Shown in pieces: positions 22,967 through 59,834 of a stretch of 64,000 bases of DNA. The position numbers were made by a program, and so were the translations under genes. The notes under the pieces are model-generated. The model saw nothing but the letters and a program-made list of their open reading frames with translations, was not told the DNA's origin and did no database searches. Source of the stretch: Pedobacter sp. (lineage in GTDB: Bacteria; Desulfobacterota; Desulfuromonadia; Desulfuromonadales; Syntrophotaleaceae); the NCBI GenBank assembly GCA_050253415.1, contig JBFWJC010000006.1, positions 64,001-128,000 on the forward strand, in the 5' to 3' direction. Numbering within the stretch: position 1 is the stretch's first letter; each line of letters begins with the position of its first letter.

Positions 22967-23497
22967 ATGACCAGTACAAAATACTTCGGAAAAATCATCC
23001 TATTGCTCGCCCTTGGATTTTTTGTCATCCCGGCAACCAGTCAGGCAAACAGAATGCATAAGGGTAGCGGCTACCACATGATGAACTCAGGCATGATGTC
23101 GCAACTCACAGACGAGGAACAAAAAACCGTCATGGACCTGATGCAAAAATACCATGGCCCCATGATGGAGCTCAAGAAACAACTCTATGCCAAACGTGCT
23201 GACCTCAATGCAGTGATGGCCCAGGAAAAATTCGATGGCAAAAAAGCCCGCGCACTGGGCAAAGAAATTTCCGCACTCCAAAGCAAATTCATGGATCAAC
23301 ACATGGAAATGTTTATCGAGATGCGTGAAAAAGGCGTCTCCTACTACGGCACCTGCATGTCGGGCGGCACAATGGGCCGCGGCATGATGGGGCCGGGAAT
23401 GATGATGGATGATGGCATGATGGGAACCGGAACAATGATGGACGGCAGGAATACAGACATGATGAATCAGAACATGATGCCGTCCAAGCAGGAATAA
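22967..23497 (+). CDS. Periplasmic heavy-metal sensor / ZraP-Spy-like protein with Met-rich tail
   Basis: Signal peptide, LTDEEQ motif, QLYAKRADL.A, Met/Gly-rich C-terminus. Confidence 0.8.
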   Translation: MTSTKYFGKIILLLALGFFVIPATSQANRMHKGSGYHMMNSGMMSQLTDEEQKTVMDLMQKYHGPMMELKKQLYAKRADLNAVMAQEKFDGKKARALGKEISALQSKFMDQHMEMFIEMREKGVSYYGTCMSGGTMGRGMMGPGMMMDDGMMGTGTMMDGRNTDMMNQNMMPSKQE

Positions 23498-23546
23498 ATC
23501 CCGTCAACAGCTTTTCCCTTAACAAACGGTGATTATGAATTGCCAG

Positions 23547-23581
23547 GCGGCATGTCGAATCTTCTGACATGCCGCTTTTCT
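23547..23581 (+). terminator. Intrinsic terminator
   Basis: GCGGCATGTC / GACATGCCGC then TTTT. Confidence 0.75.
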
Positions 23582-23745
23582 ATCCCCTTCCCCTCTATCA
23601 ATTTTCAGACCTTTTTGAATGCCCTCTACACAATCCACGAAAGTCATTGTCGGGGAAAAAGTCCGGTGGTTTGACTTTGCGAATTTGACCACTAATCTTT
23701 AATCATGCAGCCCCCTGATAAATCCACAAAAAGAAAGGAGCAAAG

Positions 23746-23988
23746 ATGCATGGTATCGGTTTTATGGATGGCTGGAGCATGATGAGCCCCGGCATGTGGA
23801 TTTTCATGCTGTTGTTCTGGGGTTTGGTCATCGTCGGGATTGTGGGTATTATCCGCTGGCTTGCCGGTCGAGACCATCGCCAGAATAGATCGGAAACAGA
23901 AACGCCGCTGGAAATTCTTCAAAAACGATACGCGCGCGGGGAAATCGAACGCGAAGAGTACCAGCGGATGAAAAAAGACCTTGAATAA
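23746..23988 (+). CDS. SHOCT domain membrane protein
   Basis: TM helix then PLEILQKRYARGEIEREEY. Confidence 0.88.
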   Translation: MHGIGFMDGWSMMSPGMWIFMLLFWGLVIVGIVGIIRWLAGRDHRQNRSETETPLEILQKRYARGEIEREEYQRMKKDLE

Positions 23989-24238
23989 CCTCTGTCCATC
24001 ATCGGAAAAATTCCTGGCGTAATGCTGCCTTCCAAAACCAGGTCAGGAATAAAATGATCACCCGTTTAGGGCATTTTTTCGCCGATGCCTTTATGTCTCT
24101 TTCGCGGGAGCATGGGACTACGTACGCCCCTTTGCGCCTGATCGGATTCATCGAGCTTGGCATAAAGACATAGCTTGCAAACGAAGTTCCCAAGTTTAGG
24201 CTCAATACATAACCCGAACTTCAGCCGGAGCCATCCTG

Positions 24239-26638
24239 ATGTGCGCAAAAACCATCTTTATAATGCCTATTATTTTCCTTTTTTTAACATCCACCGGACT
24301 GGCTGCCATCCGGGAATATCACCTTACAGTGGACCGGAAACAGATCGTCATTCAGGGCAAACAGGCCCCAGGGATGACGATCAACGGCCAACTACCCGGG
24401 CCGACTCTGCGCTTCAACATAGGCGATATCGCCCGCATTCACGTCACCAACAAAATGGATGTGCCTACCTCCATCCACTGGCACGGCGTACTTGTACCGC
24501 CGGGGATGGACGGTGTCCCCTTTGTCACTCAGCCCCCTATCGCTCCGGACACCACCTTCACCTACGAGTATCCCATTCGCCAGACCGGTACCTACTGGTA
24601 CCATTCCCACGTCGAGCTGCAGGAACAAAGCGGTATGTACGGTGCAATCGTCATTACCGGCGAAGAATCGTCCCTGCAGGTAGATAGAGACGAGGTGGTG
24701 CTTCTTTCCGACTGGACCACCGATGACCCCCACGAGGTGTTGCGGACCCTGAAACGAGGCAGCGAGTGGTTCGCCCTTGAAAAGGGCTCGGGTCAGAGCA
24801 TTTTCGGCGCCGCCAAAACCAACAGCCTGGGAGACTATTTCTATCGGGAATTACAGCGCATGCCACCGATGGATATCGCCGATGTGGCTTACGACTACTT
24901 TCTGGCCAACGGCACCCCGCACATGACGATTCCCGCCAAACCTGGTGAAAAGGTGCGGCTGCGTGTCATCGATGGCTCGGCTACCAGCTACTTTCATCTG
25001 CAGTACGCCGGAGGTCCCATGACCATCGTCAGCGCCGACGGACAACAGGTGGAAGCCGTCGAGCAAAACCGGTTTCTCATTGCGGTGGCAGAAACCTACG
25101 ATGTATTGGTGACCGTGCCCGCCGACGGCTCTTACGAATTCCGGGCGACCGCCCACGACGGCTCCGGCCGCGCCTCCGTCTGGATCGGCACAGGCACCAA
25201 ACACCCGGCGCCGGATATCCCTAAACCAAACCTGTACCGGGCCATGCACCGCCCAGCCCTTGCGTCACTCTTTTCCCTGACCCCGGCCGGCACCATGGGC
25301 ATACCCGACACCCTGGTGGAACAAGGCCGTTTCGACGCCCCCGGCATGATGGGGACGATGAATATGCACGAGATGGGGCACGCTCCCCCCGGACATGAGA
25401 TGGACCATATGCGACCTGAGCAGCAGATGATGAGACCAGGCCGCGAAGCTCACCCCCCTTCCCCATCCGAGCCGAGCGGCATGAGCGACATGAACCTATC
25501 TCATAAACATCATGCCGTCCCTTCTACCACGATCGGTTCCGAATCGGCCGGCCCGGACCTTGAACCTGCTACCCTGACTGCAAACCGGTCCGCCCGACCC
25601 TACGGGACCCGGTTCGGCTTTCTGCAGACGGACATAGCCGCCCGGAAGGCTCTGGCCATCGAAGGCGGCGAACAGCGTCCCGGGACGCCCTATGCCACCT
25701 TGCGCTCCACCAGACCGAGTACCCTGCCGGCGAATCGACCGATCCGGGAGGTCCGTCTGACCCTTGACGGCGACATGGAGCGGTATGTCTGGTTGTTGAA
25801 CAACCAGCCGTTGTCCGAATCGGACCACATCCTGATCAAAGAGGGTGAAATCGTCCGCTTCATCATGATCAACCGCACCATGATGCATCATCCGATGCAC
25901 CTGCACGGGCATTTCTTTCGGGTGATCAACGGCCAGGGGGACAACGCGCCCCTCAAGCACACGGTTGACGTGGCCCCCATGTCGACCACCGTTATCGAAT
26001 TTTACGGCAATGAAGTTGGCGACTGGTTCTTCCATTGCCATCTGCTCTATCACATGAAAAGCGGCATGGCGAACTTCGTCCATTACCAGGAATTCCAACC
26101 CGATCCACAGGTGTTGGCGGTACGCCCCCGTCTCTATCACGATCCATGGTACGCTTGGGCCAGGGCGGACCTGCTCAGCAACATGACCGAGGGCAAAATA
26201 TCCCTAAGCAACACCCGGATCATGCTGGACGGATCGTGGGAAGTAGGCTGGCAGAAGGTTGACGAAACCGATTGGGAGGCAATGGTCTCTGCAGGCTGGT
26301 ACCTGAACCGTTTCACTTCCTTCTTTGCTGGCGTGGATGCCCTGGGAGAAGGCTCGCATGCGGAAGATTTGCGAGGTCTGATGGGGTTGAAATATCTTCT
26401 GCCACTGAATATTGACCTGTTCGCCTGGGTGGACACGGAGGCCGGAGCCCGGGTTATGCTGGAAAAGGATCTGGAACTGACCCCCAGAATGAGCCTTCAC
26501 GGCGAAGTGGAGTATGACACCCACGATCAATGGGAAGGCGCTGCTGCCCTGCATTACCTGCTGACCAAAGATCTTTCCCTGATTGCCACGTGGCATTCCG
26601 AATTCGGTTATGGCGGCGGAATTTCTTTACGTTTTTAA
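24239..26638 (+). CDS. Multicopper oxidase (CopA/PcoA-type) with a C-terminal beta-barrel-like extension
   Basis: HWHG, YWYHSH, HPMHLHGH, HCHLLYHM copper motifs; Met/His-rich insert. Confidence 0.93.
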   Translation: MCAKTIFIMPIIFLFLTSTGLAAIREYHLTVDRKQIVIQGKQAPGMTINGQLPGPTLRFNIGDIARIHVTNKMDVPTSIHWHGVLVPPGMDGVPFVTQPPIAPDTTFTYEYPIRQTGTYWYHSHVELQEQSGMYGAIVITGEESSLQVDRDEVVLLSDWTTDDPHEVLRTLKRGSEWFALEKGSGQSIFGAAKTNSLGDYFYRELQRMPPMDIADVAYDYFLANGTPHMTIPAKPGEKVRLRVIDGSATSYFHLQYAGGPMTIVSADGQQVEAVEQNRFLIAVAETYDVLVTVPADGSYEFRATAHDGSGRASVWIGTGTKHPAPDIPKPNLYRAMHRPALASLFSLTPAGTMGIPDTLVEQGRFDAPGMMGTMNMHEMGHAPPGHEMDHMRPEQQMMRPGREAHPPSPSEPSGMSDMNLSHKHHAVPSTTIGSESAGPDLEPATLTANRSARPYGTRFGFLQTDIAARKALAIEGGEQRPGTPYATLRSTRPSTLPANRPIREVRLTLDGDMERYVWLLNNQPLSESDHILIKEGEIVRFIMINRTMMHHPMHLHGHFFRVINGQGDNAPLKHTVDVAPMSTTVIEFYGNEVGDWFFHCHLLYHMKSGMANFVHYQEFQPDPQVLAVRPRLYHDPWYAWARADLLSNMTEGKISLSNTRIMLDGSWEVGWQKVDETDWEAMVSAGWYLNRFTSFFAGVDALGEGSHAEDLRGLMGLKYLLPLNIDLFAWVDTEAGARVMLEKDLELTPRMSLHGEVEYDTHDQWEGAAALHYLLTKDLSLIATWHSEFGYGGGISLRF

Positions 26639-31987: not shown

Positions 31988-32437
31988 TCAGGCACATCGG
32001 TGAATGCCGACAGCCCCCGCAGCGGAAGGATGGTACCGGAGTCTGAGATAAGAACCTTCAGGGGGTAAACCGTCCACACTGAAATGGAAAGGCAATTCCA
32101 GCATCCCCTTGCGGTTGGAGGACAGACCGACCACCCGCGTGGTTTCGTGACCGACGAGGCCACCGTCCGCTGTACAGACCATCAGATCCAGATGCCCCGG
32201 CATTTGAAGTTCATGGGGCCGCTTGACGGTTCCTGCCACTACCAGATCGTCCCCTTTGGCAAAAGCCCGGGCGCGCAAGACGCTGACCGAAGAAGCCTGC
32301 ACCAGCACCGGCGAAGCGGGGGTCGAGTAATCCAGGCTGTAGCGCCCGCTGCTTTGAGACGGCGAGCGGGCAGGGGTACAGGCTGCCAGCAGGGCGGCAA
32401 CTGTCAGGAATAACACGGCCAGAAGAGTCGTTTTCAT
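31988..32437 (-). CDS. Lipoprotein, unknown function
   Basis: Lipobox LAAC; SD AAGGGG. Confidence 0.75.
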   Translation of the reverse strand: MKTTLLAVLFLTVAALLAACTPARSPSQSSGRYSLDYSTPASPVLVQASSVSVLRARAFAKGDDLVVAGTVKRPHELQMPGHLDLMVCTADGGLVGHETTRVVGLSSNRKGMLELPFHFSVDGLPPEGSYLRLRYHPSAAGAVGIHRCA

Positions 32438-32570
32438 AATGGTATCCCCTTTTTTCGACAGGATCCTGTGTTTATTCTACGGCAGGGGGGCATCCGCTCA
32501 CAAGTCGTCGGCGGACGATGCTGATAGCTGCGATGTAATAATGGGATTGGTTTACAGAGGCTGGCTTGGG

Positions 32571-32639
32571 CTCATCCGAAAACTTCGGATGAAGTATAGC
32601 TGGTGTCCATCCATAGTTTCCGGATGAAAACTAGCTGGT
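32571..32639. repeat. Tandem 35-nt repeat of a small hairpin unit
   Basis: CATCC-N9-GGATGAA-N3-TAGCTGGT at 32571-32604 and 32606-32639. Confidence 0.75.
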
Positions 32640-32686
32640 CGACGGGCATGTTTTGCCCGTCCCACAAGACAACCCGGGGAGGAATC

Positions 32687-33076
32687 TCAATTCAGAAGGG
32701 AACAGAGGCGTGTGAAAAGAGGCGCGCCGCTCGCATCGAGGTGAAGAGCGGCAGGTAATGGGATACTGTTCGCAATCTCCAAGGAGCGGAGATTGAACGC
32801 GGTCCAAGGCAGGATGCCTGCTTCCTGGGGAGTCTTGACCTGCGGTTTATATTCCGCAGTGACCAGAGAACGTTTTTCCTGGGAAGCACTGAGGGTGCAG
32901 CGATATTCACCCGCTCCGGAAGCATGAGAGGTCGTCTGCCCATTCAGCCTGGTCTGGTCGCAGCACGCGTGCCGGGCGGAGTCCCCCACCCCGCAGCGAT
33001 GCAGTACCGAGCCCAATGCCCCGATGGGGGATCCCAGGCTCAAAACCAGAAATAATGTTGTCAGACGCGTTATCAT
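32687..33076 (-). CDS. Secreted Cys/His-motif protein (HxC / CC / C-terminal AP..CS.L); candidate leader peptide
   Basis: Signal-like N-terminus, HRCG, ACC, GAPLFTRLCSLLN; visibly paralogous to 45476-45868. Confidence 0.75.
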   Translation of the reverse strand: MITRLTTLFLVLSLGSPIGALGSVLHRCGVGDSARHACCDQTRLNGQTTSHASGAGEYRCTLSASQEKRSLVTAEYKPQVKTPQEAGILPWTAFNLRSLEIANSIPLPAALHLDASGAPLFTRLCSLLN

Positions 33077-33248: not shown

Positions 33249-33404
33249 TTAGGAATCCGTAGGGGTCTCTTCGCTACCACCCTCATTGGGTGGCCGTTTG
33301 CGACCTCCATGCCCGCCACCGCAACAACCGCGCCCTGACAGGTGCATGGCAAGGAAAATCCCGATAACGATTACCCAGATCCAGTTATCCGCCAACCATT
33401 TCAT
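33249..33404 (-). CDS. Small membrane protein, DUF2933-like (51 aa; missed by the ORF track)
   Basis: Manual translation MKWLADNWIWVIVIGIFLAMHLSGRGCCGGGHGGRKRPPNEGGSEETPTDS*; SD GAGGTG. Confidence 0.8.
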   Translation of the reverse strand: MKWLADNWIWVIVIGIFLAMHLSGRGCCGGGHGGRKRPPNEGGSEETPTDS

Positions 33405-33486: not shown

Positions 33487-34023
33487 TTATTTCTTCATCA
33501 TCATTTCCTGTTGCGCCATCATGCCTTTCATCATTTCCTGCATCATCTGCATTCTTTTTTCCATCATCTCCAGGCGATTGCCCATCATGCAGTTCTGCAT
33601 CATCATGCCCTGGCCAGACATCATGCCGCTCTGTCCCATCATGTTTTCCATCATGTCCATTTTCTTTTCCATCCGGGTCATGCGCTCGCCCATGGGCATG
33701 TTCTGCGTATCCGCACCGTTCATCATGCCTTTCTGGTCTCCCGTCATCATGCCCTGACCGGACATCATGTTCATGGTCTTCATGGCCTCTTTCATCTGCT
33801 CCATGTGCTGATGCATGAGGTTCTGGCGTTCCGACGGGGTTTTGGCAGTATCCATCTTTTCCCGGGCTTCCTGCATCTTCGTGATCGATGTACCCATCTG
33901 TTCCTGAGTCATTGGGGTGGCGGCCTGGGAGCCGTCTGCAGGGTGATGTTCCTGCACAGCCCAGGAAGGACCCGCCATGGCAAAAGCAAGTAAAAGGGTC
34001 ATGGTAAAGATAATTTTTCTCAT
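33487..34023 (-). CDS. Met-rich periplasmic protein, putative copper binding
   Basis: Signal peptide, EHHP, a very Met-rich helical body, MMSGQGMM twice; SD AAGGAGG. Confidence 0.82.
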   Translation of the reverse strand: MRKIIFTMTLLLAFAMAGPSWAVQEHHPADGSQAATPMTQEQMGTSITKMQEAREKMDTAKTPSERQNLMHQHMEQMKEAMKTMNMMSGQGMMTGDQKGMMNGADTQNMPMGERMTRMEKKMDMMENMMGQSGMMSGQGMMMQNCMMGNRLEMMEKRMQMMQEMMKGMMAQQEMMMKK

Positions 34024-34099: not shown

Positions 34100-34426
34100 T
34101 CAGCATTCATGCAACTCGATCTCCGCTTTGGTGCGGATACGATAGAGCTTATCCACCGGTTGCACCGCAACGATTCCGTCGCCCGGGATACCAAGGTGAG
34201 CACTGTCGATGATGGCTTTGACGATAGAATCAACGGTCGACTGTTCAGCAAAAATGGCTATGCAGACATGATCGACCATCCGGTCTTCCTTGAACAGGTT
34301 GGCATATTCGCCGAGTCCCTTGATACGGGATACGGTAACGCCCTTTACCCCAATCTGCCTGAGCCTTTCCTCGACTTTTTCGAGTACCGAACTGCGCACA
34401 ATAGCCACAATCTTTTTAATTTCCAC
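34100..34426 (-). CDS. P-II family regulator
   Basis: KKIVAIVR, GVTVS..KG.G, GDGIVAV.PV....RIRT; GTG start with SD AAGGAG. Confidence 0.88.
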   Translation of the reverse strand: MEIKKIVAIVRSSVLEKVEERLRQIGVKGVTVSRIKGLGEYANLFKEDRMVDHVCIAIFAEQSTVDSIVKAIIDSAHLGIPGDGIVAVQPVDKLYRIRTKAEIELHEC

Positions 34427-34489: not shown

Positions 34490-36793
34490 TCACAACTCCA
34501 CCCGCCGCAACCGCAGAGCATTGCTGACCACCGATACCGAACTGAAACTCATAGCCGCAGCTGCGATCATGGGGCTGAGCAACAAACCGAAGACCGGATA
34601 TAAAACTCCGGCGGCGATCGGTACGCCCAAGGCGTTGTAACAAAAAGCGAAAAACAGGTTCTGGCGGATATTGCGCATGGTCGCCCGACTCAGCTGCCGT
34701 GCCCGCACGATGCCGCGCAGGTCGCCCTTGACCAGGGTCACCCCGGCGCTCTCCATGGCCACGTCGGTGCCGGTACCCATGGCGATGCCGACATGGGCCT
34801 GGGCCAAGGCCGGCGCGTCGTTGATGCCATCACCGGCCATCGCCACGAAACGCCCTTCTTCCTGCAGTTCCTTGATTTTGGCAGCCTTGTCCTGCGGCAG
34901 GACATCGGCCCGCACCTCGTCGATATCCAACTTGTCGGCCACTGCTTTAGCGGTGGTGAGATTGTCACCCGTGAGCATGACGATCCGAATGCCGCTCTGA
35001 TGCAGCTGGCGTATGGCTTCCGGTGTGGTTTCCTTGATGGGATCAGCGACCGCCAACAAGCCGGCAGCTTTGCCGTTTATCCCTACAAACATGGCCGTCT
35101 GGCCTTCCTTGCGAAGGGCCTCAGCCCGCTCCAGCATCTTTTCCGGGTCGATATTTTTTTCCTGAAAAAGCTTCTGGGTACCCAACACTACCTCGACTCC
35201 GTCCACTTTGCCGATCACACCTTTTCCTGTAACGGATTCAAAATGATCGCTCGAGGCCAGGGATATGCCCCGTTCTTCGGCTCCCTGTACGATGGCTGCA
35301 GCCAGAGGATGTTCGCTGCCTCGCTCCAGGCTGGCCGCAAGTCGCAAGAGTTCATCCTCCTCAACGCCGATTGCCTCAACTGCAACCAGTTTGGGTTTGC
35401 CTTCGGTAAGAGTGCCGGTCTTGTCGACCACCAGAGTATTCACCTTGCGCAAATGCTCGATAGCCTCGGCATTCTTGAACAGCACCCCGAGGGTCGCGCC
35501 CTTCCCGGTCGCAACCATGATGGACATTGGAGTGGCCAGACCAAGAGCGCAGGGACAGGCGATGATGAGCACCGCCACGGCGTTGATAAGGGCGTGGGCC
35601 ATGCGCGGTTCGGGACCGAAACCGGCCCACACCACGAAAGTGATCAGGGCAACAGTCACAACCGCCGGCACAAAATATCCCGACACCTGGTCGGCCAGTT
35701 TCTGGATCGGGGCACGACTGCGCTGGGCCTCCGCCACCATTTGCACGATTTGGCTGAGCAGGGTATCTGCGCCGACCCGTTCGGCTTTCATGATAAAGGT
35801 CCCGGTCTGATTCACCGTGGCACCGGTTACCGGATCACCCTTATCCTTGGAAACCGGCAAAGGTTCGCCGGTTATCATCGACTCGTCGATGCTGCTGGTT
35901 CCTTCCTGGACCACGCCGTCCACCGGCACCTTTTCACCGGGACGCACCCGCAACCGGTCACCGACCTCGACTTCCTCCAGCGGTATATCCAGCTCGCTGC
36001 CGTCCGCTTCGATACGCCGGGCGGTTTTTGCCGCTAACCCCAGCAAGGCCCGGATGGCTTTGCCGGTCTGGCTTCGGGCACGCGATTCCATGACCTGCCC
36101 AAGAATCACCAAAGTGGTGATAACGGCGGCAGCCTCGAAATAGACCGCAACCTCTCCTTCGGCTCCCCGAAACGAGACAGGGAAAAGTTCAGGCCAGAGG
36201 GTAGCCACGACGCTGTATAGATAGGCCACTCCGACTCCGAGGCCGATGAGGGTAAACATGTTCATGCTGCGATTGACCAGGGATTGCCAGTAGCGGGTCA
36301 TTATCGGCCATCCGCACCATATAACCACCGGCGTGGCCAGTGCCAACTCAATCAGGTTCAGTGTACGTGGCGGTGCCAGATCCGCGATCCGGCCGCCTAT
36401 CCCCGGGATGAGTTCCCCCATGGCCAGCACCAGCACCGGCACGGACAGGCCGACGCTCACCCACAGTCGCCATATCCAATCCTTCAGTTCTGCACTTTCC
36501 TCACCTTCCTCAAGACTCACCACCTTTGGTTCGAGGTCCATCCCGCATTTGGGACAACTGCCTGGACCGATCTGGAGAATCTCCGGGTGCATCGGACAAG
36601 TGTACTCCCTGGTGTCATCCTTTACTGCCTGTTTTTTCTTTTCTTTCAGTGACTTATCAAGGAACTCTTCAGGATCTCGTTTAAATTTTTCCAGGCACTT
36701 CGTGGAACAAAAGTAATACATTTTGCCCCGGTGCTCCGTTTTTCCGGCACATTTTTCCGGAGTAACGTCCATTCCGCAGACAGGATCTTTCAT
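34490..36793 (-). CDS. copA: Cu(I)-translocating P1B-type ATPase with YHS and heavy-metal-binding domains
   Basis: [44 protein letters not shown] and MSFSS motifs. Confidence 0.95.
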
Positions 36794-36838: not shown

Positions 36839-37492
36839 TCAACGAGCCTGTTTGCCCAGCTGGGGAAAGAATGCCGGAACCCGCTCCCGGTAAAGGCGAA
36901 ATTCATCGCCGAATTGTTTCTCCAGTTCCTTCTCCTCCCGCATCGCCAGACGGTAATAAGTGTACATCAATACAGGCCACAGGATCATTGTGGTAATGGA
37001 GGGCCACTGAACGAGAAAGCCCACCGTGATCAAAAACAACCCGCTGTACTGGGGGTGCCTGACACGGGCATAAATCCCCCCGGTGACCAGTTTCCCCTCC
37101 TTCGCGCCATGAATCAGAATCCAGCCTTTGTACACCAGGTACCCGCCGAAAAAGATAATCCCGTTGCTGACAAGGTGCAGGATTGCCATGGCAACTGCGG
37201 AATGAGCCAAACCCAGGAATACCAGTACCAGGTGGCCGCTAGGGTGAGAAAAGGGGTCGAGCACAGGATAAGCGTCGCCCAACCAGGTCGAGAGGAAGTA
37301 AATCGTCAGGGGAAAACCGTACATCTCGGTGAACAGGGCGACAAGAAACCCCAGAAAAGCCCCCATCGAGCGCCACTCGACCTTTTTCTTCGGCCTGATG
37401 AAGCCGATGGCGAAAAACAGAAAGAGCAGAATATTGAAGACCACCACCGGCCACAGGCCATAAGCATAACCGCCCAACTCGGTACCGTGCAT
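36839..37492 (-). CDS. Isoprenylcysteine carboxyl methyltransferase family membrane protein
   Basis: EMYGFPLTIY, G.Y..VRHPQY, EE..L...FG; family often found next to Cu ATPases. Confidence 0.88.
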   Translation of the reverse strand: MHGTELGGYAYGLWPVVVFNILLFLFFAIGFIRPKKKVEWRSMGAFLGFLVALFTEMYGFPLTIYFLSTWLGDAYPVLDPFSHPSGHLVLVFLGLAHSAVAMAILHLVSNGIIFFGGYLVYKGWILIHGAKEGKLVTGGIYARVRHPQYSGLFLITVGFLVQWPSITTMILWPVLMYTYYRLAMREEKELEKQFGDEFRLYRERVPAFFPQLGKQAR

Positions 37493-38773: not shown

Positions 38774-41700
38774 TTAGGTTTCGGACGGTTGCTGGTCCTC
38801 GAATTCCTCCAGTTCTCCCTGGGCCGTCGGCTCCAGGGTCGGATCCAGCTTCCGGCCGCGCCAGATGTAAAAAATGACAGGATAGGCAAGCATCTCCATC
38901 GCCAGGGATGTTACCGAGCCGCCAACCATGGGGGCGGCGATGCGTTTCATCACATCGGCCCCCGCGCCGGTGCTCCACATGACGGGCAGCAGGCCGACTA
39001 TAATGGTGATCACGGTCATCACCTTGGGGCGGATACGCTTGACCGCGCCGTGGTGAACAGCCTGCTTCAGGTCGCCCCGGGTGAGCATTCGCCCCTTGTC
39101 CGTCCAGTTCCGATGCGCGATGTCGAGGTAAAGGAGCATGACCACCCCGGTCTCGGCGTCAAGACCGGCTAAAGCGATGAGCCCAACCCACACCCCGATG
39201 GACATGTTGTAATCGAGCAGATAGAGCAGCCAGAAAGCGCCCACCAGCGAGAACGGAACGGCCAGTAGCACGATTCCGGTTTTGACCGCCGAGCGGGTGC
39301 TCAGATAGATGAGAAGGAAAATGACCACCGCCGTCAGGGGGATGACCAGCATCAGGCGTTTCTGGGTCGACTCGATGTACTCGTACTGTCCGCTCCAGAC
39401 GATGTTGTAGCCGGGCGGCAGGGTAATGTTCTCGGCGACCGCCTTGCGGGCGTTTTTCACATAGGTGCCGACGTCGATCCCCTTGAGATCGACAAAAACC
39501 CAGGCGGTGCGCCGGGCATTCTCGGTCTTGATGGCGCCCGGGCCCTTGCTGATGCGGATATCGGCAATCTGCCCGATGGGGATGTGCCTGCCCTCGGCGA
39601 TGGGGATCAGCACCCTTTTCAGGGCCGGCAGATCGTTGCGGTAATCCTGCAGATAGCGAATGTTCACCGGATAACGTTCCAGCCCCTCGACGGTCTGGGT
39701 GACGTTCATGCCACCGATGGCGCTCTGGATGATGTCTTGCACATCACCGACGTTCAGCCCGTAACGGGCCGCTTGGTCGCGATCGATGACGAAGTCGAGA
39801 TAGTTGCCCCCGACCACGCGCTCGGAAAAGGCGCTCAGGGTGCCGGGCAGGGTCTTGACCAGGGCCTCGACCTCCTCGCCAAGATCGCTCAAGGTCTGCA
39901 GGTCCGGTCCCATAATCTTGACCCCCACCGGCGTCTTGATGCCGGTGGAGAGCATGTCGATGCGGGTCTTGATGGGCATGGTCCAGGCGTTGGTCAACCC
40001 CGGAAACTGAATGGCCTTGTTGAGTTCCTCGGTCAGTTGCTCAACGGTGATCCGCTTCTCCTCCGGCCAGACCCAGCGCAGCGGTATCTTCACCGGCCCG
40101 GTCCATCCCGGCCAGTCGCTGTAGAATCGCTCCACCTTGAGCTTGCGCCATTCCTCCTCCGGCTTGAGCATGATGGTGGTTTCGATCATCGACAAGGGCG
40201 CCGGATCGGTGGCCGTTTCGGCGCGGCCGATCTTGCCGAAGACATGATGCACCTCGGGGAACTGGCGAATGATGCGATCGGTCTGCTGCAGCAACTCCCT
40301 GGCCTTGGTGATAGAGATCCCCGGCATAGTGGTGGGCATGTAGAGCAAGTCCCCCTCGTACAGAGGCGGCATGAATTCCGTCCCTAACCTGGACAGCGGA
40401 AAGGCGACGGAGAGGACCAGCAGCAGCGCCACCACCAGCGTCGTTTTGCGCCAGCGCAGCACCAGATCGACGACCGGATGGTAGAGGCCAACCAGGAAAC
40501 GGCTGATGGGATTGCGCTCTTCGGAAAGGATTTTCCCCCGAATGAACCAGACCATGAGCACCGGAACCAGGGTGACGGCAAGGATCGCCGCAGCCGCCAT
40601 GGAATAGGTCTTGGTGAAGGCAAGGGGTTTGAAGAGGCGGCCGGCCTGCTCCTGCAGGGTGAAAACCGGAGCGAAGGAGACGGTGATCACCAGCAGGGCG
40701 AAGAAAATGGTGGGGCCGACCTCCTTGGCCGCCTTCGCGATGGTTTCACTGCGCGACTTTCCCTCTCCTTCTTTCTCCAGGTGCTTGTGAGCGTTCTCCA
40801 CCATGATAATGGCCGAGTCGACCATCGTGCCGATGGCGATGGCGATACCGCCCAGGCTCATGATGTTCACGTTGATCCCCTGGGCGTACATGATGATGAA
40901 AGACATCAGAATCGCCACGGGCAGCGTCAGGATGACCACCGCCGCGCTCGGCAGATGAAACAGGAACAGGATGATCACCAGGCCGACGACGATGCTCTCC
41001 TCCAGCAGCTTTTCCTGGAGATTGGAGACCGCGCGCTGGATCAAATTCGAACGGTCGTAAACAGGAACGATCTTCACCCCTTCGGGGAGCCCGGCCTTGA
41101 GTTCCTCGAGCTTTTGTTTGACATTGTCGATGGTCTTGAGGGCGTTTTCACCGAAACGCATGACGATGATGCCACCCACCGTTTCGCCCCGGCCATTGAG
41201 CTCCGCAAGGCCGCGCCGCAGTTCGGGGCCGATGCGTACCTGCGCCAGATCCCGCACCAATATCGGCGTGCCCTGGCGGTCGGTACCGACCACCACCTTC
41301 TCCAGGTCGGCCACGGATTGGATATAGCCCAGACCCCGCACCATGAATTCAGTTTCGGCCATCTCCACCAGACGACCGCCAACGTCATTGTTGCTGCGCT
41401 GGATAGCCATCTTGATCTGCGGGATGGTGATGTGGTAGGCGAGCAGCCGGTCCGGATCCACCGCCACCTGGTACTGCTTGACGTAGCCGCCGATGCTGGC
41501 CACCTCGGAAACCCCTTCCACGGCGGTCAGTTCATAGCGCAAAAACCAGTCCTGGATGGAGCGCAGTTGCTGCAGGTCGTGCCGGTCGCTCTCCAGAGCG
41601 TACTCGTAGACCCAACCGACCCCGGTGGCATCGGGTCCTAGGCTTGGCGTGACCCCCTTCGGCAGCCGCCCGGAGGCATAATTGAGGTATTCGAGCACCC

Positions 41701-42025
41701 GGGACCGGGCCCAGTAGAGATCCGTGCCGTCCTCGAAGATGATGTAGACGAAGGAATAGCCGAAGAATGAGTAACCGCGCACCACCTTCGCCCCCGGCAC
41801 GGCGAGCATCTGGGTGGTCAGTGGATAGGTAATCTGATCCTCAACCACCTGTGGCGCCTGCCCCGGATACTCGGTGAAAATGATCACCTGCACGTCCGAG
41901 AGGTCGGGAATGGCATCGATGGGGATGTTCTTCAGAGAGTAGACCCCTCCGATGAGGAGAAACGCGGTCGCAAGTACCACCATGAACTTGTTGCGAACCG
42001 ACCAATCAATTATTTTTTCAAGCAT
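38774..42025 (-). CDS. cusA: CusA/SilA heavy-metal efflux RND permease
   Basis: DAIPDLSDVQVII, GPDATGVGW, EFMPPL.EGDLLYMP, RIRPKVMT. Confidence 0.96.
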   Translation of the reverse strand: MLEKIIDWSVRNKFMVVLATAFLLIGGVYSLKNIPIDAIPDLSDVQVIIFTEYPGQAPQVVEDQITYPLTTQMLAVPGAKVVRGYSFFGYSFVYIIFEDGTDLYWARSRVLEYLNYASGRLPKGVTPSLGPDATGVGWVYEYALESDRHDLQQLRSIQDWFLRYELTAVEGVSEVASIGGYVKQYQVAVDPDRLLAYHITIPQIKMAIQRSNNDVGGRLVEMAETEFMVRGLGYIQSVADLEKVVVGTDRQGTPILVRDLAQVRIGPELRRGLAELNGRGETVGGIIVMRFGENALKTIDNVKQKLEELKAGLPEGVKIVPVYDRSNLIQRAVSNLQEKLLEESIVVGLVIILFLFHLPSAAVVILTLPVAILMSFIIMYAQGINVNIMSLGGIAIAIGTMVDSAIIMVENAHKHLEKEGEGKSRSETIAKAAKEVGPTIFFALLVITVSFAPVFTLQEQAGRLFKPLAFTKTYSMAAAAILAVTLVPVLMVWFIRGKILSEERNPISRFLVGLYHPVVDLVLRWRKTTLVVALLLVLSVAFPLSRLGTEFMPPLYEGDLLYMPTTMPGISITKARELLQQTDRIIRQFPEVHHVFGKIGRAETATDPAPLSMIETTIMLKPEEEWRKLKVERFYSDWPGWTGPVKIPLRWVWPEEKRITVEQLTEELNKAIQFPGLTNAWTMPIKTRIDMLSTGIKTPVGVKIMGPDLQTLSDLGEEVEALVKTLPGTLSAFSERVVGGNYLDFVIDRDQAARYGLNVGDVQDIIQSAIGGMNVTQTVEGLERYPVNIRYLQDYRNDLPALKRVLIPIAEGRHIPIGQIADIRISKGPGAIKTENARRTAWVFVDLKGIDVGTYVKNARKAVAENITLPPGYNIVWSGQYEYIESTQKRLMLVIPLTAVVIFLLIYLSTRSAVKTGIVLLAVPFSLVGAFWLLYLLDYNMSIGVWVGLIALAGLDAETGVVMLLYLDIAHRNWTDKGRMLTRGDLKQAVHHGAVKRIRPKVMTVITIIVGLLPVMWSTGAGADVMKRIAAPMVGGSVTSLAMEMLAYPVIFYIWRGRKLDPTLEPTAQGELEEFEDQQPSET

Positions 42026-42179: not shown

Positions 42180-43673
42180 CTATTCAAACAACCCTTCCAG
42201 ATCCTCCTCAGGCATGTCGTGCCCTTCGTGGACAGCGGCCGGAGCAGGCTCGGCCATTTTTGGCTCCCGCATCTTCTGAATCGCTTCGCGCAGACGGCTT
42301 TCCGAATCGAACAGGAACTGGGCGCTGGTCACGACTGTCTCGCCTTCAAGAATCCCCTGGGTGATTTCGATGAATCCGTCCTGGTCCTGCACCCCGATCT
42401 TCACCTGACGAGGCTCGAACTTGCCCTCGCCGAGAGCGACGAACACCGTCTGCTTCTCTCCGGAATGGATCACCGCTTCACTGGGCACGGCCAGGGCTCC
42501 CTTGACTTCCTGGCCATGGACCCGCACGTTTACGTACATATCGGGTTTGAGCTCCAGGCCGGGATTAGGGAACTCCAATCGCGCTTTGACCGTACGGGTT
42601 TTGGGGTCAACATAGGGATAAATTGTGGTGATTTTGGCGGTGAGAGATTTGCCGCCGACAAACGGCAACAGCACTTCCGCCGTCTGCCCTACCTTGACCC
42701 AAGGCAGTTCGTATTCGTAGATATCGGCATAGACCCACACCCGCGAGATATCGCCGATCTGGAACAGTTCCTGACCGGCCTTGATAAACTGTCCGGGCAT
42801 GGCCATTTTCATCATCACCACCCCTTTATAGGGCGCGTACAGCGTCAGGGTCTTGCGCACCTCGCCGGTCTTCTCCAACTGACGGATCTGCCGGTCGCTG
42901 ATATCCCAATACCGCAGACGTTGCCGAGCGGCCTGCAGCAACCGATCGCCACCGTCAGCGATTTCCGTAAAGGCACTATCTTTGAGTGCATCTTTGTTAC
43001 GCAGGGCCAGCAGATACTCCTGCTGGGCCGAGACCAATTTGGGACTGTAAAGTTCCAGTAACGGCTGACCTTTCCGCACCAGTTGCCCGGTCTGATCCAC
43101 ATACAGCTTTTCGACCCAGCCATCCACCTTGGCATTAATGGAAGTCACTTTCGGCTCGTCGTAATCGATATTGCCAACGGTGCGAATCGAGCGGTGCAGA
43201 TCGCGACGTGTTACCTGCGCGGTGCGCACCCCCATATTCTGGGCAGTCACCGGATCGATGGTGATGGTCGAACCACTCTGAGCCTCATCCTCATACACCG
43301 GAACAAGGTCCATGCCCATGGGTGATTTTCCGGGCTCGTCGCGAATGTAGGTAGGGTCCATGGGAGCCACCCAGTACTTGATCTTACGCTCACCTTTGGA
43401 CATCTCCCCCTGCGAGGTCTCCGTGGAAACCTGCCCGACAGTTCCGGCCTTCACCGGCGTGAGGGCCATGCCGCAGATTGGGCAGTTGCCAGGCTCATCG
43501 GCAATCACCCAGGGATGCATGCCGCAGGTGTATTGCTGGTGTGCTTCGTGGCTGGCCTGCTCGGATTCGGGAGCCGACCTGTGCAAGGCGTACCATGCCG
43601 AGGCCAGAACCAGGGGCAGAAAAAGCAAAGTAATTATCAACAAACGTTTTCGTAAACGTGTCATGGCACTCAT
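42180..43673 (-). CDS. cusB: CusB efflux RND periplasmic adaptor
   Basis: YTCGMHP..CPICGM, YWVAPMDP..PGKSPMGMDLVP, YSP.L..AQQEY, LKPDMY. Start could also be 43664. Confidence 0.93.
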   Translation of the reverse strand: MSAMTRLRKRLLIITLLFLPLVLASAWYALHRSAPESEQASHEAHQQYTCGMHPWVIADEPGNCPICGMALTPVKAGTVGQVSTETSQGEMSKGERKIKYWVAPMDPTYIRDEPGKSPMGMDLVPVYEDEAQSGSTITIDPVTAQNMGVRTAQVTRRDLHRSIRTVGNIDYDEPKVTSINAKVDGWVEKLYVDQTGQLVRKGQPLLELYSPKLVSAQQEYLLALRNKDALKDSAFTEIADGGDRLLQAARQRLRYWDISDRQIRQLEKTGEVRKTLTLYAPYKGVVMMKMAMPGQFIKAGQELFQIGDISRVWVYADIYEYELPWVKVGQTAEVLLPFVGGKSLTAKITTIYPYVDPKTRTVKARLEFPNPGLELKPDMYVNVRVHGQEVKGALAVPSEAVIHSGEKQTVFVALGEGKFEPRQVKIGVQDQDGFIEITQGILEGETVVTSAQFLFDSESRLREAIQKMREPKMAEPAPAAVHEGHDMPEEDLEGLFE

Positions 43674-43697
43674 CCTGATTTTTGATTTCAAGTTTTT

Positions 43698-43775
43698 CTT
43701 CGCGCCTTCGCGTCTTCGCGTGAGATAACAACAACGGTATTTCATTTTTCACGCGAAGCCGCGAAGAATGCGAAG
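43698..43775. repeat. Octamer (CTTCGCG[C/T]) x3 with an inverted copy
   Basis: CTTCGCGC-CTTCGCGT-CTTCGCGTGA ... TCACGCGAAG-CCGCGAAG-AATGCGAAG. Confidence 0.8.
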
Positions 43776-43787
43776 CTAATTTAATCG

Positions 43788-45116
43788 CTAATCTTCCTGA
43801 CCGAACGCAAGCTCCCGCCCCACCGCAGCCTCAAGTTGGGCGACGCTGCGCCCATGCTCGGACAGCGCGCGATGGTAATCGATCTGGTAACGATACAAGT
43901 TCATCAGACCGTCAAGCAGATTGAGAAAATCAGTGTCACCAACCTGGTAGGCAGCCAGACTTGCCTCATAGCTCTGCTGGGCCTGAGGGATGATCCCGGT
44001 CTGATATAACTGGACCAGGTTACGGTTCTTTTCCAGCTGGGCGTACTGGTCGGAAATGGTGAATTCGACCCGGTTGCGGAATTCCTCAAGCTGGCTGCGG
44101 GCCATGCGCAAGGCCGAATCCGCCTCGGCCACCGCCGCCCCCCGTTTTCCCTGCCACAACGGTAGATTGATACTGATGCCGGCGCTGACGAAATCGCTTC
44201 CCGCGGCGGGATCCCCAGCTATCTCCTCACGCTGGCGATAGCCCGCAAAGACGTTGACATCAGGATAGTAGTCAAGTTTGGCCAACCTCCGTTGTGCCTG
44301 GTAACCATCGATCATCGACTGGTAGGCGGCAAAAAAAGGTCGTTCTGTTCGTGCCATCTCGATCAAAGCCGGCAAATCCTTTCCGACCGGGGTCTGGGAA
44401 AGGATATCCGGCAGGTCAACAGGGGTTGTGCCAGGACGGCTTAAAAGCCGGTTAAGATCCGCGATGGCGGTTATCCTCTGTTGCTCCAGATTAAACAGCT
44501 TATCCTGGAGCTTCGAACGCTCGACCTGGGCTTTGAGCACATCCTGCTGCAGACCGGTGCCCACCGCATAACGCGTCTCAGTCAGCCGCGTAAAATCCTT
44601 CAGTATCGCTATATTCCTCCGGGTGACATCGATAGCCTGTTCCTGAAAATAGAGGCGATACCAAGCATCTTTAACCTTTTGAACCAATTGTAGCCTGGCC
44701 TCCTCATAGATGCCCCGATACCATAACGCCTGCTGCTCTGCCATCTTCTCTTTGGCAGCCAATTTGCCGGGAAAAGGCAACATCTGAGACAACTGGATTT
44801 CCTTGCCTGTCATAGGGGTCACGCTGTCGGAAAAACTGTCGACTGGATAGTTCGACAGCACCAAACTCAGTTTTGGATCGTCGAGGCTGCCAACCTGGAG
44901 GATCTTGTGTGTGGCCATGTCCCAACGCGCCTTGGCAGCCAGCAGATCCGGGTTATCGGCCAGTGCTTTTATGACCAGTTCGTCGAGTGTCATGGGAGCG
45001 TAATGCCTGGCCGGACCGTCTGTCAGAACCACATCCTGAGCCATCACCGCCCCACCGGACCCGAATAAAAGACAGAAGACCCATAACCCCATAAAAACCG
45101 TTATGTTATTCGTCAT
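43788..45116 (-). CDS. TolC-family outer-membrane efflux protein of the Cus system
   Basis: NPDL.AA, SQ.LPFPGK, Y..G...QQDVL.AQ, LPLW; SD GGAGAGG before ATG 45116. Confidence 0.92.
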   Translation of the reverse strand: MTNNITVFMGLWVFCLLFGSGGAVMAQDVVLTDGPARHYAPMTLDELVIKALADNPDLLAAKARWDMATHKILQVGSLDDPKLSLVLSNYPVDSFSDSVTPMTGKEIQLSQMLPFPGKLAAKEKMAEQQALWYRGIYEEARLQLVQKVKDAWYRLYFQEQAIDVTRRNIAILKDFTRLTETRYAVGTGLQQDVLKAQVERSKLQDKLFNLEQQRITAIADLNRLLSRPGTTPVDLPDILSQTPVGKDLPALIEMARTERPFFAAYQSMIDGYQAQRRLAKLDYYPDVNVFAGYRQREEIAGDPAAGSDFVSAGISINLPLWQGKRGAAVAEADSALRMARSQLEEFRNRVEFTISDQYAQLEKNRNLVQLYQTGIIPQAQQSYEASLAAYQVGDTDFLNLLDGLMNLYRYQIDYHRALSEHGRSVAQLEAAVGRELAFGQED

Positions 45117-45475
45117 GTTAGAACCTCTCCTGATGGACTGGATAATATGCGTAAGCAATTAAACTATAGCTGTAATCAACGAAACCGCGAGAGTCCTGCG
45201 GCAAGAGTCCCGCGATCTGGGCGATACGGATGAAACACCCGACCCAACGCTTACGCAACCCTATTGCCTTGACCGCCGGGGTAATGTCTAACCCGAGCAA
45301 CATGCAAAACAAGGATGGCGGGTTTGCAGTACCCACACAGCAACCCAAAAGGTTGATTTTTTACGCCAGCAAGGCGTTTATGGATAAAGTTCCAGCTTTG
45401 GCTGATGAAAGATACAAGAGTGCGATAGTTCGGCTCCGCGCGAAATTTGCGGAGCAAACCAATCCTGGGAGAGGC

Positions 45476-45868
45476 TTAAATCAGAAAGGAACAAACACGG
45501 AGGAAGACCGGGGCACTCCCGCCAGGTGGGTGAGAGGCTACCTGGTAGCGGAACGTCTTGAAGATACCCTCGGTAAGACGAAGGAAAAACGAAGGGGTTG
45601 TGCGGATATCCGCCAGGTGAGCGGCATCGAGTTGAACTTTTTGACTTACGGTAGCCAGTTGCGAGGAAGGCTGGCTCGTCGCCAACTGACAGTGATGCGT
45701 CAATTGGTCAAAACCGTCAACCTCAGGCCGGTTGTTCTCCGTCCCTTGGCAGCAGGACATAGGGGAAGCGCTTTTCTCCATTCCACATCGGTGCGAAACC
45801 GCACCGAAAACCCCTGCCGGAAACAGCATGGCCAGAATCAGAAGAGATGTAAGAAAGCGAAACCGCAT
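45476..45868 (-). CDS. Secreted Cys/His-motif protein (HxC / CC / PP..CSFLI); candidate leader peptide of the cus operon
   Basis: Signal-like N-terminus, HRCG, SCC, HHC, HPPGGSAPVFLRVCSFLI; paralog of 32687-33076. Confidence 0.8.
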   Translation of the reverse strand: MRFRFLTSLLILAMLFPAGVFGAVSHRCGMEKSASPMSCCQGTENNRPEVDGFDQLTHHCQLATSQPSSQLATVSQKVQLDAAHLADIRTTPSFFLRLTEGIFKTFRYQVASHPPGGSAPVFLRVCSFLI

Positions 45869-45949
45869 AGCAAAAACCCTGAGTACAATGGCCTAAAAAG
45901 AGACGCAAAGAGTGCCCTACTAATTATATCGAGTTCCAACCCTTAAAAA

Positions 45950-45978
45950 ACACTAGCAGCGTACTAGATTATTGTCAA
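45950..45978 (-). promoter_or_regulatory. Sigma70 promoter for the leader-cusCBA operon
   Basis: TTGACA-N17-TAGTGT on the minus strand; imperfect palindrome CTAG-N7-CTAG overlapping the spacer and -10. Confidence 0.55.
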
Positions 45979-46029
45979 ACAATTTTCGGATATGAGCTTA
46001 ACCAGAACATAAGGTACGACTACGCGCGT

Positions 46030-46956
46030 TCAATCGTTGAAAAGTTCGGTAGACAAGTAACGCTCGCCCGTATCCGGCAGAATCACCACAATCTGCTTAT
46101 CGCGATTTTCCACGCGACTGGCCACTTCCAGCGCAGCACAGACTGCCGCACCCGAAGAAATCCCGGCCAGCAAACCTTCTTCGCGGGCCAGACGCCGAGC
46201 CATTTCCAGAGCCTGCTCGTTGCTTATCCTGATAATCTCATCGATAACGCTCTTATTTAAAATCTCAGGCACAAAGCCGGCGCCAATCCCCTGGATCTTG
46301 TGCGCTCCCGGAGGACCACCGCTGAGAACCGCCGAATCGGAAGGTTCGACGGCCACCACCTGAAAATCAGGTTTACGCTCCTTGATCACTTCGGCAATAC
46401 CGGTCAAGGTGCCACCGGTACCAATCCCGGCGACCAGAATATCGACTTTTCCATCGGTATCCCGCCAGATTTCTTCAGCTGTGGTACGCCGATGAATGGC
46501 GGGGTTGGCCGGATTGCGAAACTGCTGGGGCACAAAGGCATGTTCGATGTTCAAGGCGAGCTCTTCCGCCTTGTCGATCGCGCCTTGCATGCCCAGGGTT
46601 TTAGGTGTCAACACCACCTCAGCACCAAATGCGGCCACCAGATTGCGGCGCTCCACACTCATGCTTTCCGGCATGGTCAGAATCAGGCGATAGCCCCGCA
46701 CCGCAGCCAGCATGGCCAGAGCTATCCCGGTATTTCCGCTGGTCGGTTCGATAATCACGGAATCCTGTTGCAGCAGCCCCTTTTCTTCGGCATCGAGAAT
46801 CATGCTTAAAGCGGTTCTGTCCTTGACGCTTCCGCCGGGGTTGAAAGACTCCAGCTTGGCGAGTACCTCCGCAGCGTCGGGTGCGCTGATACGCCGCAGA
46901 CGTAAGAGCGGCGTCCCGCCGATCAACTCGATAAGGCTGTCATGGATATTTGCCAC
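46030..46956 (-). CDS. cysK: Cysteine synthase A
   Basis: [40 protein letters not shown]. Confidence 0.96.
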
Positions 46957-47116
46957 GCTATTTCCCTTTCCATTTTATGCCGTGCCGCCATGATTCTACC
47001 CTGCCCGTCCCCTTCAAAATAACCGAGCACCAAAGGGGCAGAACAAACATGGCAGGACTATTGATCCTTCACCCCGGCTATCTGACCAGGGTGAAGGATA
47101 GATTTCTTTTACCTCC

Positions 47117-59142: not shown

Positions 59143-59366
59143 TTACAGCTGTTTCAAAAAATTTTTGTCGAATGAAGTCACAATTGTTGACAAAACTTGC
59201 GGGAAATAATCGTTTATGATAATTATGATTGGAATGTTGTAAACATGTATAGAAAATCTCTATGCAACAACCTCCATCATCTACGTATCGAGCTTTATTT
59301 GATGTAAAAGCAGGTTATTTATTTGCTGTTTACAAAATAAATCAACGCCTTATTGTGAGGGAATCC

Positions 59367-59834
59367 GTGAGACTATCAACCAAAAGCCGTTATGGACTTC
59401 GCGCCTTATTCGACATCGCCTACAATGCCGGAAACCAGCCAGCACAGATCAAGGATATTTCCCGTCGTCAGGAGATATCACCGAGGTATCTCGAACAGAT
59501 TTTCCAGAGCTTTAAAAAGGCCGGTATCCTCCGAAGCAAAAAAGGTCCCCAAGGCGGATATTTTCTGACCCGGAAACCTGAGCAGATCACTGTTCGGCAA
59601 ATTATTGAAGCTGCCGAAGGCGATACCCTGCTGGTCGCCTGCGCGTGCGAAGCTCCCAAAGGCAAAGGCCGCTGCACCATGAACGGACAATGCGTCACGC
59701 AAACCGTATGGTCCGAGGCGACGGCGCATCTCAACACCTTTTTTGACGGCATGACCCTTCAAACTCTGTGCGAGCGCGGGCAAGACATGGGGGTCAAACG
59801 CGAAAGCGATCATCGCTTCATGTATTACATCTAG
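59367..59834 (+). CDS. Rrf2 family transcriptional regulator (Cys-containing)
   Basis: GTG start VRLSTKSRYGLRA, YLEQIF, S.KG..GGY.L, several C-terminal Cys. Confidence 0.92.
   Translation: MRLSTKSRYGLRALFDIAYNAGNQPAQIKDISRRQEISPRYLEQIFQSFKKAGILRSKKGPQGGYFLTRKPEQITVRQIIEAAEGDTLLVACACEAPKGKGRCTMNGQCVTQTVWSEATAHLNTFFDGMTLQTLCERGQDMGVKRESDHRFMYYI

Follow-up and report, generated by a model that had tools for sequence, protein, structure and literature searches.

How might a copper or silver efflux pump be controlled at a locus in which none of the classical regulators of metal resistance is recognizable? This question is raised by a 64,000-nucleotide stretch of contig JBFWJC010000006.1 (positions 64,001 to 128,000; Pedobacter sp., assembly GCA_050253415.1, placed by GTDB in the Syntrophotaleaceae of the Desulfuromonadales), which we refer to as the window and in whose coordinates all positions are given. 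In it, a small open reading frame (ORF; 45476–45868) encoding a 130-aa protein with a signal-like N-terminus is followed, after an untranslated spacer of 359 nt (45117–45475), by the gene for a CusC/TolC-like outer membrane efflux protein (OEP; 43788–45116; PF02321, E = 1e-52) and by the CusB- and CusA-like genes of a resistance-nodulation-division (RND) pump; all features of this pump locus lie on the minus strand of the window. An initial annotation of this DNA had proposed that the mRNA just past the stop codon of the small ORF buries the Shine-Dalgarno (SD) sequence of the OEP gene in a long-range helix, which a ribosome paused at the end of the ORF would open. Our analysis confirmed the observation behind this proposal and partly supports its interpretation as a translational metal switch. 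The small ORF is probably a relative in design of the known copper-sensing leader peptides, from an unnamed family, and we see about even chances that it is a CutF-type exported leader acting in cis, whose terminating or stalled ribosome would release a long-range SD clamp on read-through transcripts, with a probable internal promoter as a second element.

Pairing between the stop codon and the next gene

The small ORF ends in a TAA stop codon (45478–45476), and beginning at the last base of this codon the transcript reads AGCCUCUCC-CA-GGAUUGG (45476–45459), a pyrimidine tract followed by a second arm. This post-stop arm is complementary to CCAGUCC-AUCA-GGAGAGGUU (45141–45122), the SD arm of the OEP gene, whose SD sequence, GGAGAGG, stands in front of a start taken as the ATG at 45116–45114; both arms were found exactly, in sequence and in position, as first described. 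Minimum free energy (MFE) and centroid folds of 45100–45500 (minus strand), the check proposed by the initial annotation, both hold the closing helix of 9+7 bp together with the local hairpins that it had named, and none of 100 shuffled sequences folds as well (z = -4.79; the spacer itself has z = -3.74 vs shuffles). In folds extended by 60-nt flanks at both ends, pair probabilities between the 26 nt after the stop and the 26 nt of the SD region summed to 14.2, as against 0.0–0.01 in six shifted windows (+/-30, 60 and 90 nt). The duplex between the first 20 post-stop nucleotides and their own SD region has a predicted energy of -24.8 kcal/mol, a value reached by none of 500 random post-stop sequences from long ORFs of the same genome (mean -8.0, sd 3.1); paired with the SD regions of 15 other loci, the window post-stop gave -6.7 to -21.0 kcal/mol.

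This arrangement recurs in homologous loci (given here by labels such as L003), which come from related genomes and are not independent, representing roughly eight lineages. A pyrimidine run of at least 7 nt within 20 nt after the stop was present in 13 of 18 distinct loci vs 8.1% of 2272 long-ORF stops of the same genome, pure pyrimidine runs of 7–13 nt beginning a few bases past the stop, and an anti-SD motif that was defined post hoc was found in 12 of the 18 vs a background of 4.8%. The initial annotation had made its proposal depend on conservation of the helix, and in this respect it held: the post-stop anti-SD recurs, and MFE folds from stop to start show it base-paired to the SD of the following gene in 15 of 17 distinct loci. 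With flanks, the summed probability was at least 2 in 12 of the 15 loci computed (L025 and L020 being left out) vs 3 of 90 shifted controls, and in 10 of 16 loci the duplex with the locus's own SD was among the best 5% of 500 random post-stops. The register of the helix relative to the stop and start codons differs from locus to locus and the spacers cannot be aligned; swap tests and background duplex tests therefore replace the counting of covariation. Extra pairing arms past the pyrimidine tract occur in the window (GGAUUGG/CCAGUCC) and in L003 and L006, and the post-stop/SD helix was also found in both MFE and centroid folds of the distant relative L028, which has an RGPP motif and a spacer of only 90 nt.

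The next gene encodes an OEP in 13 of 17 loci (12 of 16 besides the window), while the genes that come next in four loci, among them the paralogue of the small ORF in the window, encode small secreted proteins that belong to no family. The spacers of these loci are untranslated and 234–891 nt long, with z below -2 vs shuffles in 12 of 17, and their conservation is limited to the post-stop region, a TATA[AG]T block (see below) and the SD; the window spacer is likewise structured and, in its middle, poorly conserved. A local hairpin of the GGGACCGGUGCG... type, located 20–60 nt past the stop and after the pyrimidine tract, is conserved in L006/L022 and in L014–L017.

Several other accounts of the spacer were examined and set aside. 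Only one copy of the spacer exists in the 4.1-Mb genome, and an origin of the terminal complementarity in a repeat or a miniature inverted-repeat transposable element (MITE) is therefore rejected. Two ORFs within it (45251–45457 and 45118–45348) are judged to be non-coding because they had no NCBIfam match and lie in a spacer middle that is unalignable, with large indels; an antisense ORF (45230–45946) had no Pfam match. Intrinsic terminators were not favoured, with two terminator-like sites vs 1.9 expected. No riboswitch-like conserved core was seen in the loop in the spacer alignment, and a search of 44000–47000 against Rfam found no family at E <= 10.

The small, probably exported protein and its family

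By its sequence conservation the 130-aa ORF is a real, conserved coding gene. Its product has an HRC motif at residues 26–28, CC at 39–40 and HHC at 58–60, and ends in HPPGGSAPVFLRVCSFLI, all precisely as the initial annotation had it; its N-terminus is hydrophobic, with a VFG-A site recognized by eye, and in AlphaFold2 (AF2) models forms a helix over residues 2–15 or 2–25. A word-indexed search yielded eight relatives, and scans of genome and metagenome collections yielded six loci. The gene is present in 14 of 233 genomes of the same order, including 11 of the 16 other genomes of the same family, and a profile search of 1.84 billion representatives identified 398 proteins (counted as clusters at 50% identity and mostly from other phyla) at E <= 0.001, almost all of them 120–140 aa long and matched from end to end. 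The alignments show a conserved hydrophobic N-terminus and near-invariant cysteines at C28, C39-C40, C59-C60 and C126, and the best-conserved block (0.84) is formed by the last 10 residues, the family ending in [PA]-[VLA]-[FY]-[LI]-R-x-C-S-[FL]-L-[IN]-stop (FLRxCSFLI-stop in the window protein). Synonymous variation among the codons of these ten residues is free (TTC and TTT for F at 9:9, TGT and TGC for C at 10:9, five different codons for L-2), and for this reason we see selection on the C-terminal peptide and not on the RNA. The C-terminal cysteine, invariant and four residues from the end, loosely recalls a CaaX box, although out of register.

Database searches placed this protein in no named family. 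The initial annotation had suggested kinship with DUF2946 or HYC_CC_PP, which hidden Markov model searches of 22 subfamily members did not bear out: none of the 22 matched Pfam, and no relevant NCBIfam match emerged, even at E <= 10, HYC_CC_PP being absent among the NCBIfam matches at that threshold, and its resemblance to the motif order H-x-C, CC, PP is one seen by eye only. For DUF2946 (PF11162), only 3 of 99 distant members had a weak, sub-threshold match (best E = 0.018), and there was no match to PF11162 anywhere in the genome. AF2 predicted no globular fold, only one helix at the N-terminus and a short one at the C-terminus (mean predicted local distance difference test (pLDDT) score 50.9 with 22 sequences and 66.0 with 99), the lowest E in a PDB search with the 99-row profile was 0.67, and the ESM Atlas returned only unnamed clusters of 127–129 aa (score 0.96–0.97), the ESM Atlas model of the 130-aa protein having a pLDDT of 0.50.

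The more distant relatives carry proline motifs. Among the 148 relatives examined from the best 150 matches, R[AG]PP occurs within the last 30 residues in 84, lying 19–20 residues from the end in 71, PP occurs within the last 15 residues in 101, and a C-[SAT]-h-h-x ending is found in 132. Most of these distant relatives follow the pattern ...R[AG]PP...GPP-h-[FY]-h-x-x-C-S-h-L-I-stop, in which the invariant tail comes after two proline motifs. The window protein has SHPP at the position of R[AG]PP, with HPP at -19 to -17, and its last 15 residues are GGSAPVFLRVCSFLI. On the evidence of these sequences, the R[AG]PP of the distant relatives links the family in design to the copper-sensing leader peptides CutF and CruR.

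A proposed translational clamp and its rivals

The features described above, their conservation and the predicted pairing are the observed part of the mechanism that we propose. In this mechanism the 130-aa ORF would be a co-translationally exported, Cys/His-rich leader of CutF/CruR design, belonging to a family without a name, and it would be transcribed from a conserved sigma-70-type promoter (P1) by transcripts that read through the 359-nt spacer into OEP-CusB-CusA. The candidate P1, read from the sequence, consists of TTGACA (45978–45973), a 17-nt spacer and TAGTGT (45955–45950), and lies in the 160-nt gap that separates the small ORF from an upstream cysK-like gene ending at 46030; many homologous loci show a TTGACA-N17-TAG.GT arrangement ~75–100 nt ahead of the small ORF, which implies a long 5' leader. 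A consensus promoter scan of 44900–46200 reported no promoters, P1 going unreported because its -10 fits only three of six positions. In L013 an inverted repeat of 9-5-9 is made up of the P1 spacer and -10 and may be an operator.

On the long transcript the stop-adjacent pyrimidine segment would pair with the SD region of the OEP gene and close the spacer into a loop, and the pump would therefore be translationally silent. A ribosome lingering on the last codons or the stop codon would cover the anti-SD and so free the SD, and this lingering would depend on the invariant C-terminal peptide and on the binding of metal by Cys/His motifs that had already been exported. A second, internal promoter (P2), represented by a TATAGT ~50 nt before the OEP start, would probably add expression that is independent of the clamp. 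Read-through, arrest, metal sensing and P2 activity are thus the steps that we infer. A more specific version, which we put forward tentatively and regard as doubtful, is that the invariant [FY]-h-R-x-C-S-h-L-I/N before the stop is a new, non-proline termination-arrest sequence, and that periplasmic copper or silver bound to the exported Cys/His motifs holds the ribosome at the stop, opening an SD clamp of 234–891 nt for an RND pump at a locus with no CusRS or CueR.

A number of results weigh against this mechanism. When the stop-codon region (-15 to +13) was forced to be unpaired, as a model of ribosome masking, SD accessibility gained 0.1 or more in only four of 16 loci (the window, from 0.26 to 0.37, and L004, L006 and L017) and fell in L014, so that the outcome of this modelling is equivocal. 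The helix was not predicted in flanked folds of L013, L017 and L026 nor in the MFE fold of L020, and L019 has no anti-SD. In the swap test a locus's own pair was in the top three in only 7 of 16 rows, from which we take much of the complementarity to be that of a generic anti-SD to an SD; by these calculations the specificity of pairing outside the window is modest. The window protein has neither RAPP nor a PP in its last 15 residues, and on the missing RAPP the protein sequence agrees with the initial annotation, which had remarked on it. Finally, a promoter within the spacer that drives the tolC-like gene, which the initial annotation had named as an observation that would refute its own proposal, is indicated at the level of sequence: in 12 of 13 loci linked to an OEP gene, a single TATAGT or TATAAT hexamer is located 47–53 nt before the OEP start. 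Judged from its sequence and position, this hexamer is likely to be the -10 element of an internal promoter, and the resulting P2 transcripts would be without the anti-SD, since they would start downstream of the post-stop arm.

This last result is central to the rival explanation that survives best, in which the two genes are independent: the small ORF would encode a stand-alone exported metal-binding or regulatory peptide resembling CzcI, the pump would be expressed from its own P2, and the complementarity would silence or insulate read-through or would matter little. The hexamer (45163–45168 in the window; also in L003–L006, L012–L016, L020 and L022) occurs once per spacer, being found nowhere else in the OEP-linked spacers and not at all in the four non-OEP loci, against a genome frequency for TATA[AG]T of 1.9e-4 per nt; in several loci it has a TGn extension, and an AU-rich stretch lies upstream of it. 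In 6 of 16 loci a short P2-type transcript exposed the modelled SD better than the long transcript did, the gain in accessibility being 0.1 or more, and with six near-invariant cysteines in the protein, C126 among them, metal binding could itself explain the conservation of the C-terminus. Independence nevertheless leaves unexplained why the stop-adjacent pyrimidine tract is kept across the family, including in spacers of 90–117 nt that have no hexamer. Furthermore, the hexamer has no recognizable -35 and the consensus scan found no promoter here either, no fold is predicted by AF2 for the supposed stand-alone protein, and the scan of the window found no nearby regulator able to control P2. 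We consider the independence of the two genes unlikely. In the leader mechanism P2 is read as a second, clamp-independent route to expression, the reason being that this same clade has kept its anti-SD. A GC-rich hairpin precedes the hexamer in the window and has no counterpart in L003 or L004.

A second rival, attenuation by Rho of the tnaC or CruR type, takes the stop-adjacent tract to be a Rho utilization (rut) site; a ribosome held at the end of the small ORF would block Rho and let RNA polymerase proceed to the pump genes, whereas in the absence of stalling Rho would terminate transcription in the spacer. Long untranslated spacers (234–891 nt), pyrimidine runs of 7–13 nt near the stop and a mild excess of C over G in the first 100 nt of most loci (30% vs 19% in the window) are consistent with this, and there is a precedent in CruR, which uses Rho in a 162-nt spacer and whose homologs, according to the available portion of PMC9426467, generally have long intergenic distances. 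The same spacers, however, are structured (z below -2 in 12 of 17) and have stable hairpins directly after the tract, both of which are unfavourable for Rho loading, and a rut site alone does not account for the complementarity that extends past the tract in the window, L003 and L006; we regard this explanation as quite improbable. That the pairing is a functionless accident between a CU-rich 3' flank and a purine-rich SD is very improbable indeed, for although any CCUCC-like tract pairs with any SD and swap-test specificity is modest outside the window, the tract is present in 13 of 18 loci vs an 8% background, none of 500 random post-stops matches that of the window in duplex energy, and the shifted controls are near zero.

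An anti-SD placed exactly at the stop codon offers a simple, mutable handle on the leader mechanism, and two paralogues in one window together with a likely internal promoter make combined translational and transcriptional control directly addressable. Should the C-terminal peptide indeed stall termination, it would represent a new arrest motif.

The copper/silver island and known leader peptides

The window carries a large copper/silver island in which no classical regulator was found. Downstream of the OEP gene, a Pfam scan identified a CusB-like membrane-fusion protein (MFP) with an HMBD domain (42180–43745), a CusA-like RND transporter (ACR_tran; 38774–42025) and then, in order, a YtkA-like protein, DUF5676, a PEMT/ICMT-like protein and a P1B-type ATPase with YHS and HMBD domains (34490–36793). 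The pump cluster thus includes the PEMT/ICMT-like methyltransferase (36839–37492, minus strand). The copper ATPase is followed directly by a P-II family protein (PF00543, E = 2.6e-15; 34100–34426, minus strand), an unusual neighbour for metal-resistance genes, and beyond it a 178-aa secreted protein (33487–34023, minus strand) that has no Pfam match and is extremely Met-rich, with repeated M-x-x-M and MMxxQGMM; it is probably a periplasmic Cu(I)/Ag(I) binder. Next to it is encoded a membrane peptide of 51 aa (33249–33404, minus strand), which contains CCGGGHGG and had no Pfam match, and on the other side of this peptide is the paralogue of the small ORF (32687–33076, minus strand), which encodes 129 aa ending LFTRLCSLLN-stop. 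A pyrimidine tract adjoins the stop codon of this paralogue as well, and a 249-nt spacer (32438–32686) separates it from a 149-aa lipoprotein-like ORF (31988–32437, minus strand) that belongs to no Pfam family; paralogues of the group ending in CSLLN were seen again in other genomes (L025 and L026). A Metal_resist (PF13801) protein and a 799-aa multicopper oxidase are encoded upstream on the plus strand (22967–26638). The initial annotation recognized no CusRS, CueR or CsoR in the cluster, and we likewise found no two-component, MerR, CsoR or ArsR regulator among the 53 window ORFs scanned, a scan in which short regulators lying under longer spurious ORFs could be missed; the sole regulator seen in it was an Rrf2 gene (59262–59834) adjoining a cysteine desulfurase.

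Among known systems the closest in design is CutF of the Rhodobacter capsulatus cutFOG operon, which is encoded by the first gene of this copper-defence operon (see also preprint 10.1101/2025.02.05.636593). The available portion of PMC9973294 describes it as DUF2946-like, having a Sec signal, CxxxC and a C-terminus rich in proline; stalling of the ribosome near this C-terminus, enhanced by copper, is proposed to melt the stem-loop in which the cutO SD is masked. The same portion reports a survey of CutF-like proteins in which OEP genes were the commonest downstream neighbour and most spacers were shorter than 100 nt (PMC9973294). The window protein resembles CutF in being shorter than 150 aa, in its Cys motifs and what may be an N-terminal export signal, in being encoded by the first gene before the pump, in having an OEP gene as its downstream neighbour, and in that a helix is predicted to mask the SD of this neighbour. 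When set against the operational definition of CutF-like proteins, its length of 130 aa and its OEP-CusB-CusA neighbour after a 359-nt spacer fall within the definition, while its last 15 residues, which contain no PP, fall outside. It also differs in having no DUF2946 match, no CxxxC and, in place of a C-terminal PP, the invariant FLRxCSFLI-stop, and in that the helix of the window closes a loop of 359 nt (234–891 nt in relatives) with a -10-like element inside it.

CruR (Bp2923) of Bordetella pertussis, as described in the available portion of PMC9426467, combines a RAPP arrest motif that lies three residues ahead of its C-terminal end, a CXXC ~45 residues before RAPP, and Rho acting in its 162-nt spacer, and copper turns its genes off. 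It shares with the window protein the plan of an upstream ORF whose product bears Cys and a known or putative export signal and which is followed by a long spacer, and shares R[AG]PP with the distant relatives of the window protein. Unlike CruR, however, the window protein has no CXXC and no RAPP, the R[AG]PP of its relatives lies 19–20 residues from the end, and its target is an efflux pump, which metal should switch on. More generally, the available portion of PMC12992588 describes RAPP and RGPP as demonstrated strong arrest motifs, with an enrichment close to the C-terminal ends of small secreted proteins that are encoded upstream of metal genes. The RAPP/RGPP peptides (ApdA, ApdP and SecM-like; PMC12992588, PMC10987492, the latter likewise in its available portion) resemble the window protein in being small and, as the window protein probably is, secreted, with a conserved C-terminal region, and in their location upstream of regulated genes, a subset preceding metal-homeostasis genes. 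The difference is that the window protein is without the motif, the most conserved element of its family being a non-proline decapeptide that ends at the stop.

The small ORF may also be compared with CzcI of Cupriavidus metallidurans, which in the available portion of PMC9973294 has no C-terminal proline motif and a mode of action that is unresolved. Both are small proteins, exported in the case of CzcI and probably so here, that are encoded directly upstream of an OEP-MFP-RND metal efflux operon. The ICMT/PEMT-like gene of the window cluster may be analogous to CzcN, as in czcN-czcI. Two systems of Escherichia coli offer further parallels. TnaC, a cytoplasmic peptide of 24 aa, senses tryptophan in the ribosomal tunnel and acts via Rho with no SD clamp; regulation at the window locus would similarly rest on a ribosome held at the leader stop, with a long untranslated spacer after it. 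In infC-rpmI-rplT, an SD is masked by pairing with a far-upstream sequence and is opened by ribosomes on the upstream gene, although there the masking sequence is inside the upstream coding region and no sensing by a nascent peptide is involved.

Our literature searches found no paper on the small-ORF family or on a long-range clamp before cusC-like genes, the published list of CutF-like proteins not having been compared. The sequences indicate that the family shares the design of CutF and CruR while falling outside their formal definitions, and it is distinguished by its invariant non-proline C-terminus, by the anti-SD next to the stop codon, by the length of the loop and by the -10-like element within it. 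RND metal pumps are, in the available portion of the CutF survey, the commonest target class, and one that is untested (PMC9973294). The present locus points to a separate, unannotated family, with another invariant C-terminal peptide, in front of such pumps. To our knowledge, only CutF and CruR have been worked out as metal-sensing leader peptides, and both are DUF2946 proteins of Proteobacteria.

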